DNA of 64,000 bases from Candidatus Saccharimonadota bacterium (GTDB lineage: Bacteria; Patescibacteriota; Saccharimonadia; CAILAD01; BJGX01). The DNA is taken from the NCBI GenBank assembly GCA_016191105.1, contig JACPPH010000002.1, forward strand, positions 3,049 through 67,048, in the 5' to 3' direction. Positions 53,001-56,000 of this stretch are shown piece by piece (within the stretch, counting starts at the first letter, position 1; each line of letters starts with the position of its first letter). Made by a program: the position numbers.

Positions 53001-56000
53001 GAAGCGAGCAACATCCATTCCAGAACGGGGAATGCAGCTGAGCTTGCCGGGACCTAGCAGGCCACCGGCGTTGCATTCGTCGAACCTGGGGCAGTTCTGG
53101 TGCCCACGTTCTGTTGCTTGCTCGCGGGTACGGACGGTCGGATCGCGCAGCCAGTGTGAGTCTTGGCACACGCTGGCATTCTTGATAAGTTGAAGATCAC
53201 GCATGGCGTCCTCCTGGGTGGGTGCTGATAGGTCGACAAGAATTTACCATAATTATCACTGTTTTAAAAGTTCAAGAGGAATTAGTATTTGTTATGCTTG
53301 GGTTTTGTCACACTGGTGTGCAAGAATAACCTTGATCTCAACCAAAACGACGACAGAAACGAGAAGATCATGGACATCAAGAGATGGGCCGCTTCGGTCT
53401 ACAACAACAACGGCACACCTGGACTAAAGGTTGTGATTGAGGGCTTGTGCCCTTTCTGCGAGCTCGGTATGCAGGCCGTGCATGCAGGCAGCCTCGGTCC
53501 CGACAATGTGAAGCGGATGGGCCTGTTCGCCAACTCGGCAGTTGCTGACTTGTCGCGAGCGCGCAAGTGTGGGAACTGCGGCATTCTGTTCGGTCTTCCC
53601 GACAACGAGGAGGAATGGCTGAAAAGCGACTTCCTGGAGGATCTGACAACCGAGGGCGCAGAAGGGGCGGTTGCCAAGTTCGAACCGACGATTCGGGAGG
53701 TGCCCGGTCATGACTCTGCCCAAGGCACGGACCACATCAACCGACACTGGGATGTCGATGAGAAGCTTGAGTTGGAGATCAGGGTCGCTGGCCGTGACTG
53801 GCCACCCAGGTAGGCGTTGGGCCGGGTCCTTCGGGACTCGGCCTACCGCCGGAAATTTAGCAATTATTTACGTTTGTCACACCGCTTAGTTATACTTAAG
53901 TTATGATATCTGCAATTATCGCCATGGCTCACAACCGGGTAATCGGCAAAGACAACGACTTTGCTTGGCACCTACGAGGCGACATGATTAACTTTAGCAA
54001 GCTTACTACCGGCAATACCGTGGTAATGGGCCGTAATACCTATGAGCACTTGCTTAAGCGGATCGGTAAGATTTTGCCCAACCGCACTAATATAGTAATT
54101 ACCCGCAACAAAGACTTTAAAGGACCGGGCACGGTAGTGGTTAACTCGCTTGAGGAAGCTTTAAAAAAAGCTCCCAGTAAAGATGTGTTTGTAATTGGCG
54201 GAGCCCAGATTTTTGCGCTGAGCCTGCCGATTCTAGACCGCATTTATCTAACCGAGGTTGATGCCGAAGTCGAGGGCGACGCTTTTCTGCCAGAGATCGA
54301 TCCGAGCAGGTTTAAAGAGGTTTCGCGTGAGGCTCACAAGAAAGATGAGCGTAATGATTACGACTACTCTTTTGTGGTGCTAGACAGGGTAAAATAATGT
54401 ACCAAAAAGCCCTACCACGAGCGCTGCAAGCCTATGGCATACAGTACAGCAATCTTTTGCCGGCCCAAAAAGGTTATCGCAATGAGTCTTACCCCGTGTT
54501 ACTTAAAGACAAAGCCAAAACCATTAACTTGATTTTTTACAAGCGCGACTCAGACATACTAGAGCGCATAAAAAACGCCAACCGGGTTTCGGAATTTGTG
54601 GCCGACAGCGGCATGCCAGCGCGCCAGCGAGCCGACGAGCGGATCTTGACTCTACACTGGGCCAACGGGGTTGGCTATGTGGCAGTTTACAATTACTTGC
54701 CCGGTCAGACAATCCCGTGGGAGGCCTATACCCAAAAGCATCTCAAGCTGCTGGGCAAAACTATGAGTGACATGCATTCCGTGCTAAGCAAGTTAGATCA
54801 AGACAAGCTACCCAACGTGGCCGAAGAGTGCATGAGCTTGCTAGAGAGAATGAATGCATATTTTGAGTCGAGCGATGTTGCTCGGGCTATGCAAAGCAAA
54901 CTTCAGCTATCCATCGACTTGAGTGTACTTACAAAGCTCAAAAAAGTAATCGATGCTGCCAGCATGCTACCAGCTCAGCAGCCCTTGCACATGGATTTTG
55001 TGCGCAGCAACATTTTATTTAATACCGAAGGTGGCGAGCTAAAAGTTACCGGCATAATAGACTTCGAGAAAGCTGCTTTTGGACACCCAGTTTTTGATGT
55101 TGCCCGCACTTTAGCCTTTTTGCTGGTTGACTGTAAATATAAAGATGCCATTAAGGCCAGAAAGTACTTTCTGTATTCTGGCTATGCTAAACGCGGGGCA
55201 GCCAAGCTAGCTCAGGTGCATGTAAAATACGATGGCCAGTCGCATAACCTGCGTGAGGAGTTGGTTAAATTCTTCTTGATCCACGACTTTTACAAATTCT
55301 TGCGACACAACCCGTATGAGTTCTTGGCGCAAAACGAACACTTTGTACGCACCCAAGAAATTTTGCTACAATTGAATGTGATAAACTACTGTAGTCAACG
55401 TAGTGGAGGAGGGGAGATGACCGACTGGAAAAAGCGCCTTGTATCACAAAGCGACCTAATAGACTTACACGATAAATTAAAAGAAAAAGATAAGAAAATC
55501 GTCTTCACAGCTGGCTCGTGGGATCTAATTCATGCTGGCCAGTGTAGGTATTTGGAGCGGGCGAAAGCCGACGGCGATGTTTTGGTGGCAGGCGTGAGTA
55601 GCAACGAGGCCATACGCAAAGTTAAGGGTGCTAACAAGCCAATTCTAGATGAGAAGATAAGAGCCGAAATGTTGACTTTCTTGCGCTCTGTCGATTTTGT
55701 AACGATTTTGCCCGAACCAAGTTGTGCACCAAGCTTAGCCATGCTTAAACCCGACGTTTACATAACGGTTAAAGAAGACTGGACCAAGAACTACAAAGAA
55801 TCCAAAGAATACAAGATAGTTACCCGCTACGGTGGCAAGGTCAAGGTGGTGCCGCGCCAGTCAACGGCGCTATCGACCACCTCGATTGTACAGCGCGCCA
55901 TTGGCGGGCACTTGGGCGATGTGTTCAAAGACTTTATGACCTTGCGCAAAGACCCACTAAAAGAAAAGAAATGACTCCCGCCGAACGCAAAAAACAAGAA

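Follow-up and report, generated by a model that had tools for sequence, protein, structure and literature searches.

Does an open reading frame (ORF) that carries a small-molecule kinase and a nucleotidyltransferase in one chain represent a new bifunctional enzyme, and what would these two activities do in a Saccharibacteria genome? The question arises from a single unbroken ORF of 525 amino acids (aa) at 54397-55974 on the forward strand of a 64,000-nucleotide (nt) stretch of contig JACPPH010000002.1 (Candidatus Saccharimonadota bacterium), found in the ORF listing of that stretch, the whole of which is hereafter called the window; its database entry is MBI2797763.1. A preliminary description had read the ORF as an unusual fusion of an APH/choline-kinase-fold kinase with a cytidylyltransferase-like domain, and the two-domain composition was borne out by Pfam hidden Markov model searches: APH (PF01636) matched residues 25-241 (E 6e-15, 56 bits against a gathering cut-off of 23.2) and CTP_transf_like (PF01467) matched residues 371-500 (E 8e-10, 39.5 bits against a cut-off of 21). 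The ORF is made of two adjacent, normally separate operon genes that have been joined across their intergenic spacer through a missing kinase stop codon. Both genes belong to an uncharacterised module, which varies a scheme of two-step activation already known and whose coupling to thymidylate synthesis is conserved.

Origin of the fused reading frame

In the relatives L001-L003, the same operon encodes the kinase (328-332 aa) and the nucleotidyltransferase (hereafter CT; 183-189 aa) as separate genes, 21-27 nt apart. At the corresponding junction in the window, which reads ...AAC TAC / TGT AGT CAA CGT AGT GGA GGA GGG GAG / ATG ACC..., M341 is the start codon of the ancestral CT gene, and its Shine-Dalgarno sequence GGAGGAGGGGAG and ATG are intact within the linker. 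The closest relative, L001, has the identical 27-nt TAC-to-ATG spacing and frame but reads GTC TAA TAA AAC TGA GAT GGA GGG GAT, and the spacers of other relatives span 11-90 nt with GGAGG-type sites. Since L001 shares both the frame and the 27-nt spacing, loss of the stop suffices to explain the fusion. One substitution would do, for example TAA to CAA at 55396-55398 or TGA to TGT at 55390-55392, and a 1-nt deletion from '...TAC gTG TAG...' would provide an alternative origin. A frameshift within the kinase gene was ruled out, the kinase being colinear with its relatives up to Tyr331. Given the intact internal ribosome-binding site and ATG, a free CT product is probably still made in this genome.

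Database searches place the fusion in this genome only. When the full-length protein was compared with 5.8 billion protein clusters (90% identity), the sole full-length match was MBI2797763.1 itself, and the next 119 listed matches were kinase-only proteins (316-362 aa, 50-63% identity); when 1.84 billion representative proteins were searched exhaustively with HMMER, no other ~520-aa protein of the kinase-CT type was returned. Among 150 Saccharibacteria loci with both genes, the two were adjacent and separate in 126, separated by a wider gap or an inserted gene in 17, arranged in another order in 5, and fused in one, the window. A query with the C-terminal domain listed 120 stand-alone homologues (182-192 aa, 80-91% identity); this top 120 omitted the window's own 525-aa protein (P0001), expected at 100%, and may under-report fusions, and uniqueness is accordingly based on the full-length cluster search, the HMMER search and the locus count. 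The CT gene occurs in 127 genomes of the GTDB (one genome per species), all named Saccharibacteria except for a few differently labelled or unclassified metagenome-assembled genomes (MAGs). A metagenome scan with a diverse CT alignment, aimed at other lineages, contributed 80 further loci, all of the Saccharibacteria type (76-84% identity), which served only the fusion counts. What had been singled out as a notable architecture is thus essentially two genes joined, with a spacer that holds a ribosome-binding site and an ATG lying inside the ORF, and the conservation in related genomes that would mark an evolved fusion was not observed.

Was the stop codon lost in the organism or only in its assembly? 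A sequencing or consensus error, i.e., one wrong or absent base that erased the stop between genes that are separate in the organism, would account for the fusion occurring only once, in 150 loci as in the 5.8 billion clusters searched, especially as a single base change is enough and the second gene's Shine-Dalgarno sequence and ATG are perfectly kept, as expected if they are in use. We nevertheless regard such an error as unlikely: the NCBI MAG contig (214 kb) and the Logan assembly contig (62 kb) of SRR12113392 are identical over 7578 of 7578 nt, junction included, the junction is not a homopolymer, and the L001 genes already lie in frame at 27-nt spacing, so that a natural stop loss is easy. 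We think it quite probable that the stop loss is a genuine mutation, private to this genome, and not a base-call error, even though the fusion is a singleton and the two agreeing assemblies may derive from the same reads. It is probably a real but ordinary one-off stop loss, and without confirmation at read level it does not merit an entry as a new bifunctional architecture.

Gene order around the pair is not absolutely fixed: the kinase gene lies ~2 kb downstream of CT, rather than directly upstream, in L145 and L166. A 146-aa ORF stands between kinase and CT in L009 (4526-4966) and L032; it has a weak, sub-cut-off Pfam match to nucleoside 2-deoxyribosyltransferase (E 0.031), and if this match is real, the operon would hold another deoxynucleoside-metabolism gene.

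Genomic partners in Saccharibacteria and other Patescibacteria

The preliminary description had also noted a HIT protein and nucleotide genes beside the ORF. This neighbourhood was confirmed and is deeply conserved, with DHFR upstream and HIT, a dCMP-deaminase-like protein, ThyA and SHMT downstream. The operon order in Saccharibacteria is folA - kinase - CT - HIT - dCMP-deaminase-like - thyA, with SHMT encoded downstream of this cluster and secE, nusG, rplK and rplA upstream; of 164 mostly short Saccharibacteria loci, 124 showed the deaminase and 117 showed ThyA. Within the operon, the stop codon of one gene overlaps the start codon of the next (folA/kinase, TAATG; CT/HIT, ATGA), and HIT is co-transcribed with, and probably coupled in translation to, the dCMP deaminase and ThyA.

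A similar order, [kinase]-CT-(CT)-HIT-dCMP deaminase-ThyA, recurs in distant Patescibacteria. There, the dCMP deaminase directly follows CT/HIT in 6 of 6 non-Saccharibacteria contexts, ThyA comes next in 5 of them, i.e., in all whose contigs reach far enough, and Tmk (thymidylate kinase) follows ThyA in L084. Several of these modules are encoded as single chains: short kinase - CT - CT - HIT in P0339 and P0360 (730-744 aa), kinase - CT in P0361 (440 aa), CT - CT - HIT in P0280 (543 aa), CT - CT in P0273 and P0298, ATP-cone - CT - NUDIX - dCMP deaminase in P0388 (561 aa; L087 846-2531), and kinase - CT - CT - HIT - dCMP deaminase in P0413 (884 aa). P0388 and P0413 are independent physical fusions of an HldC-like CT with dCMP deaminase. 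The kinase-CT-CT-HIT polyprotein is represented by 37 clusters or more (50-81% identity; NCBI name Candidatus Shapirobacteria) and is thus a stable family, and a kinase-CT fusion does exist as a selected architecture, but in a lineage other than Saccharibacteria. Overall, CT is constantly accompanied by HIT, dCMP deaminase and ThyA.

The Shapirobacteria polyproteins (P0339, P0390), named 'adenylyltransferase/cytidyltransferase family protein', contain the same module as the window, with dCMP deaminase and ThyA downstream, and are 34-36% (CT) and 38% (HIT) identical to the window proteins. They differ in being stable fusions with two canonical HxGH CTs and in having a short protein-kinase-like/Kdo-like kinase (HLDIKPGN), which matches the window kinase only near the catalytic loop (38% over 46-50 aa), whereas the window protein has a single CT and no HIT domain, HIT being a separate overlapping gene.

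The nearest PDB matches of the HIT protein are NitFhit and Ap4A phosphorylase (3ano), and Fhit and Ap4A phosphorylase attack the alpha-phosphate of NMP-X compounds. For the deaminase protein, the nearest PDB matches are the T4 and human dCMP deaminases. Its N-terminal ~250 aa (window 56467-57216) are conserved in Saccharibacteria and returned no Pfam or PDB sequence match. Within this region, residues ~9-157 align colinearly to the whole CT profile with an hhalign score of 30.5 (E 9e-4, probability only 19-23%), compared to at most 21.4 for 30 block-shuffles, 16.9 for the reversed profile and 20.5 for a kinase control. The domain is without HxGH, and may be a degenerate second CT that mirrors the tandem CT-CT of other lineages.

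The thymidylate synthases downstream of the module in L084 (9711-11180), L087 (2515-3975) and L089 (9675-11147) are ~480-490 aa long, with a C-terminal pterin-binding DUF4346 domain; those of L084 and L087 also carry an MtrA-like N-terminal domain, and the ThyA match is partial (E 2e-11). These DUF4346/MtrA-like enzymes hint at a non-standard C1 carrier. Viral contigs yielded 80 loci with distant CT-superfamily genes only (27-44% identity), none with a neighbouring HIT, deaminase or ThyA gene, and hence no link of the module to phages. In the literature searched, we found no description of the module in Saccharibacteria or the Candidate Phyla Radiation.

Domain properties and proposed function

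Both kinase motifs named in the preliminary description, HMDFVRSN and IIDFEKAAFGHPVFD, are present at the catalytic positions with their key residues invariant: H198, D200, N205, D222 and K49 did not vary among 77 homologues, and judging from these residues the kinase appears catalytically intact. Its AlphaFold2 (AF2) model (pLDDT 94.9) has a bilobal kinase fold, for which Foldseek returned 2ppq, 2q83, 4wh1, 6sui and 1zyl with probability 1.00. The structural neighbours include homoserine kinase II (2ppq), YtaA, NahK (N-acetylhexosamine 1-kinase), AmiN (amicoumacin kinase), YihE and aminopropanol kinase, with LicA (4r7b) ranking lower; a sequence profile search of the PDB gave one marginal match only, to ACAD11 (E 0.009). 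An identity as choline kinase or homoserine kinase was rejected, both profile scores falling under their cut-offs: 22.3 bits against 29 for Pfam Choline_kinase (PF01633), and 49 bits against 271 for homoserine kinase type II (ThrB-alt, NF003558), the nearest named NCBIfam family.

The C-terminal domain has as its best NCBIfam match rfaE_dom_II (TIGR02199), the adenylyltransferase domain of HldE (residues 358-501, E 1.6e-32), at 112.4 bits and thus under the 181.5-bit equivalog cut-off. For its AF2 model (pLDDT 75.8), the best Foldseek match was HldC (5xf2, E 3e-11), followed by the Fom1 cytidylyltransferase domain, GCT, CCT and ECT, and in a sequence-profile search of the PDB the top solved relatives were ECT (3elb, both halves, E 1.8e-17) and HldC. 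Two motif assignments of the preliminary description had to be revised. The segment SWDLIHAGQ, taken for HxGH, is instead HxGQ (H379-A-G-Q382), with Gln for the second His in 121 of the 121 closest homologues (GSWDL[IL]H[AV]GQ); and VSSNEAIR (400-407), taken for an ISST-like motif, corresponds in alignments to the GVNSD...R segment located after HxGH in HldC and ECT. The RTEGISTT-type motif is RQSTALSTT at 487-495, and the residues R146, S148, S152, T153 and T154 of this phosphate-binding motif are invariant in the CT alignment. CT also keeps H379, the aromatic W375 and the K-x-K-G segment. In the CCT literature, both HxGH histidines are critical for catalysis and the preceding aromatic is strictly conserved (PMC6060094). 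CT therefore has the profile, the Rossmann-like fold, the STT motif and the aromatic of the superfamily, with one of its two histidines replaced. The CT domains of other lineages are mostly canonical HxGH, with HxGQ or NPGH in one domain of a few tandem proteins. The family-wide HxGQ constitutes a natural experiment on a motif held essential in this superfamily. Across species, CT is 80-91% identical compared to 50-63% for the adjacent kinase, an unusually strong constraint for fast-evolving Saccharibacteria, and by this measure CT appears strongly constrained.

Among known systems, HldE and stand-alone HldC (5x9q/5xf2) are the closest relatives of the C-terminal domain, and HldE likewise holds a kinase and a nucleotidyltransferase in one chain. 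Membership in HldE/HldC was rejected: the window kinase is APH-fold whereas true HldE hits carry PfkB/ribokinase (PF00294), the CT scores under the equivalog cut-off and has HxGQ instead of HxGH, and the fusion is accidental. The operon neighbours scanned with Pfam included no GmhA, GmhB, HldD or other heptose-pathway gene and no LPS-type acceptor, a result limited to these neighbours, since the 64-kb window was otherwise not scanned in full. The Kennedy pathway (choline/ethanolamine kinase with CCT or ECT, 3elb) offers the same succession of an APH-fold kinase and an HxGH-superfamily cytidylyltransferase, and the tandem CT-CT of other Patescibacteria is arranged as in ECT; unlike this pathway, the window has a kinase under the Choline_kinase cut-off, no lipid-synthesis context, and HIT, dCMP deaminase and ThyA as partners. 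In LicA/LicC and AmgK/MurU, too, an APH-fold kinase makes an X-phosphate from which a nucleotidyltransferase makes NDP-X; LicC and MurU are GlmU/NTP_transferase-fold enzymes from an envelope context, not HxGH Rossmann-like CTs. NadM-Nudix, an NMN adenylyltransferase fused to an ADP-ribose pyrophosphatase, resembles P0388 in joining CTP_transf_like to NUDIX, from which P0388 differs by an HldC-like CT (GVNSD...KLKG) and by its fused ATP-cone and dCMP deaminase.

From these comparisons, we lean towards the pair acting as a two-step activation of a hydroxyl-bearing metabolite, X. Specifically, the kinase would phosphorylate X to X-phosphate (X-P), and CT would condense X-P with an NTP or dNTP to yield NDP-X and pyrophosphate (PPi), a chemistry universal in the HxGH superfamily. 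HIT would then cleave NDP-X at the alpha-phosphate to NMP and X-P, NUDIX taking the place of HIT in the P0388 lineage; we propose this step because the HIT and NUDIX classes both act on the NDP-X type of bond. With dCTP as the nucleotide, the net reaction would be dCTP to dCMP and PPi, with X-P recycled and acting catalytically, and the dCMP would feed the deaminase, ThyA and (Tmk) in a channel from dCTP through dCMP and dUMP to dTMP. A precedent for a dCDP-X intermediate is given by dCDP-choline and dCDP-ethanolamine, which occur naturally according to a statement in PMC10505902 that cites Kennedy 1959. The HIT cleavage step and the role in dCMP supply are tentative, and we place them on the unlikely side. 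It would be a long shot that an unrecognised Patescibacteria module of a kinase, one or two HldC-like nucleotidyltransferases and a HIT or NUDIX enzyme makes a small molecule linked to (d)CDP or ADP, cleaves it again, and thereby feeds or gates dCMP into the deaminase and ThyA. If true, this would be a new cofactor-like dCTP to dCMP to dTMP route in ultra-small bacteria, and the stop-loss fusion of the window would be an accidental replay of fusions fixed in other lineages. Saccharibacteria and their relatives are not known to make nucleotides de novo and live off hosts, and a step wired into thymidylate supply would fill a gap in the metabolic models of these host-dependent organisms.

The kinase-then-nucleotidyltransferase logic of the preliminary description is therefore plausible, the genes being adjacent in 126 of 150 loci and naturally fused in other Patescibacteria. 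As for the roles it suggested, nucleotide metabolism is the better supported and an envelope head group the weaker, since the conserved partners and the deaminase fusions tie the module to pyrimidine deoxynucleotide metabolism more than to envelope decoration. Several points weigh against the two-step activation and dCMP-supply scheme. Its function is drawn from sequence and model comparison, and the structural neighbours of the kinase, only 11-18% identical, give no indication of what X is. The kinase is missing in some variants of the module (L087, L093, L094), every Saccharibacteria copy has Gln in place of the second HxGH histidine, such that CT could be slow, altered or non-catalytic, and two enzymes seem more than is needed for making dCMP, given that single dCTP pyrophosphatases exist. 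Finally, in L084, L089 and L091 the gene immediately upstream of the module encodes a GlgA-like (ADP-glucose-type) glycosyltransferase (GT), and this, together with the likeness to HldC, points to an ADP-sugar instead. With these points counted, we hold our best explanation as a whole with slightly better than even confidence.

This last observation leads to the alternative that the product of the pair is a sugar or alcohol activated with ADP or CDP, which a nearby GT uses to decorate the envelope, and that adjacency to thymidylate genes is mere operon packing in a tiny genome. The ADP-heptose enzymes HldC and HldE domain II as best structure and sequence match of CT, ECT as its best PDB profile match with a tandem CT-CT resembling ECT, and an anomeric sugar kinase (NahK) and choline/ethanolamine kinases among the neighbours of the kinase would all agree with it, as would the upstream GlgA-like GT and the GT4 gene that is syntenic in Saccharibacteria. 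However, the GlgA-like GT is found in only 3 of 6 other-lineage contexts, and the Saccharibacteria GT4, on the opposite strand and 24% identical over the C-terminal half, is not a clear orthologue of it and was not used as evidence. Moreover, the module is invariably partnered by dCMP deaminase and ThyA, two physical fusions include the deaminase, P0388 includes an ATP-cone, i.e., a dNTP-pool sensor domain, and no LicD-type/CDP-alcohol transferase or heptose-pathway enzyme was present among the Pfam-scanned neighbours. We consider an envelope role doubtful.

The loss of the second catalytic His in 121 of 121 copies raises the possibility that the Saccharibacteria CT is a non-catalytic nucleotide-binding regulator or scaffold, which would, together with the degenerate CT-like domain of the deaminase, control dCMP deaminase or ThyA by nucleotide pools. 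The higher conservation of CT than of the kinase is of a kind often seen where proteins interact, the deaminase has an N-terminal domain that is colinear with the CT profile yet without HxGH, some tandem CT-CT proteins have HxGQ or NPGH in one of their domains, and the fused ATP-cone of P0388 would suit regulation as well. We judge this improbable, given that the first His, the aromatic, K69/G70 and RQSxxSTT are retained, that Gln can still donate a hydrogen bond, that the orthologous CT2 domains elsewhere are canonical HxGH, and that the hhalign probability of the deaminase alignment is low. Highly improbable, in turn, is a defence role in which the cluster would deplete nucleotides against phages as dCTP deaminase systems do. 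In PADLOC, HIT weakly matched ThsC and the deaminase weakly matched the 'dCTPase' model (E 1.6e-4), and NCBIfam gave a match to anti-phage dCTP deaminase (E 7e-4). These PADLOC matches are at domain level only, the kinase-CT protein has none, in 127 species-level genomes the cluster is surrounded by core genes (secE-nusG-rplKA-folA...thyA-glyA), and the deaminase is nearest to housekeeping dCMP deaminases. The defence-system reading is thus disfavoured.

Features of the locus and the rest of the window

Table 1. Coordinates in the window of the fused ORF's parts and of the neighbouring genes.
Feature	Position	Strand	Basis or remark
folA, dihydrofolate reductase	53903..54397	+	Pfam DHFR_1 E 1e-55; TAA stop overlaps kinase ATG by one base (TAATG)
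APH/ELK-fold small-molecule kinase, residues 1-331	54397..55389	+	Pfam APH; counterpart of the relatives' separate ~330-aa gene
Kinase catalytic loop HMDFVRSN (Brenner motif HxDxxxxN), residues 198-205	54988..55011	+	H198, D200, N205 invariant in 77 sequences
Metal-binding DFE segment IIDFEKAAFGHPVFD, residues 220-234	55054..55098	+	D222, F223, E224 invariant
Linker CSQRSGGGE, former intergenic spacer without stop codon	55390..55416	+	DNA compared with L001
Shine-Dalgarno sequence GGAGGAGGGGAG of second gene, inside linker	55405-55416	+	Junction DNA
HldC/RfaE-domain-II-like nucleotidyltransferase (CT), residues 341-525	55417..55974	+	Pfam, NCBIfam, Foldseek; equals relatives' 185-aa stand-alone gene
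H-A-G-Q replacing HxGH catalytic motif of CT	55531..55542	+	HxGQ in 121/121 close homologues
RQSTALSTT, RTEGISTT-type phosphate-binding motif of CT, residues 487-495	55855..55881	+	Aligns to HldC/ECT STT motif
HIT-family protein (Fhit / Ap4A-phosphorylase-like)	55971..56504	+	Pfam HIT E 5e-14; ATG overlaps CT stop (ATGA)
dCMP-deaminase-like protein, 334 aa, extra N-terminal domain ~250 aa	56467..57471	+	Pfam dCMP_cyt_deam_1
thyA, thymidylate synthase	57471..58292	+	Pfam Thymidylat_synt E 4e-107
GT4 glycosyltransferase, convergent with thyA	58387..59559	-	Pfam; present in 99/164 Saccharibacteria loci

The positions of the operon genes and motifs are given in Table 1. An Rfam scan of the window found no RNA element at the locus. 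Between rplA and folA, a GC-rich stretch (52530-53900; 0.54 in the 2-kb bin 52001-54000 vs ~0.46 around it) contains a Cys-rich 199-aa ORF on the reverse strand (52605-53204), which has no Pfam match and shares 65% identity with an ORF that L001 carries in the corresponding place, and a 174-aa ORF on the forward strand (53289-53813) that returned no match at all. This GC-rich insert is missing from some relatives (L003).

Elsewhere in the window, a low-GC island (19796-28007; 0.38-0.41) adjoins a cluster of four tRNA genes and looks like an integrated element. It encodes a serine recombinase (20941-21684), a DUF3800 protein (24593-25213) and an ABC-F-type ATPase (25555-27087), whose gene is overlapped by that of a second APH-family kinase (27084-28007); this ABC-F and APH pair resembles antibiotic-resistance gene pairs. 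On the strand opposite to the DUF3800 gene, a DUF3800-IX RNA (25212-25281, 66.9 bits) meets the 3' end of that gene.

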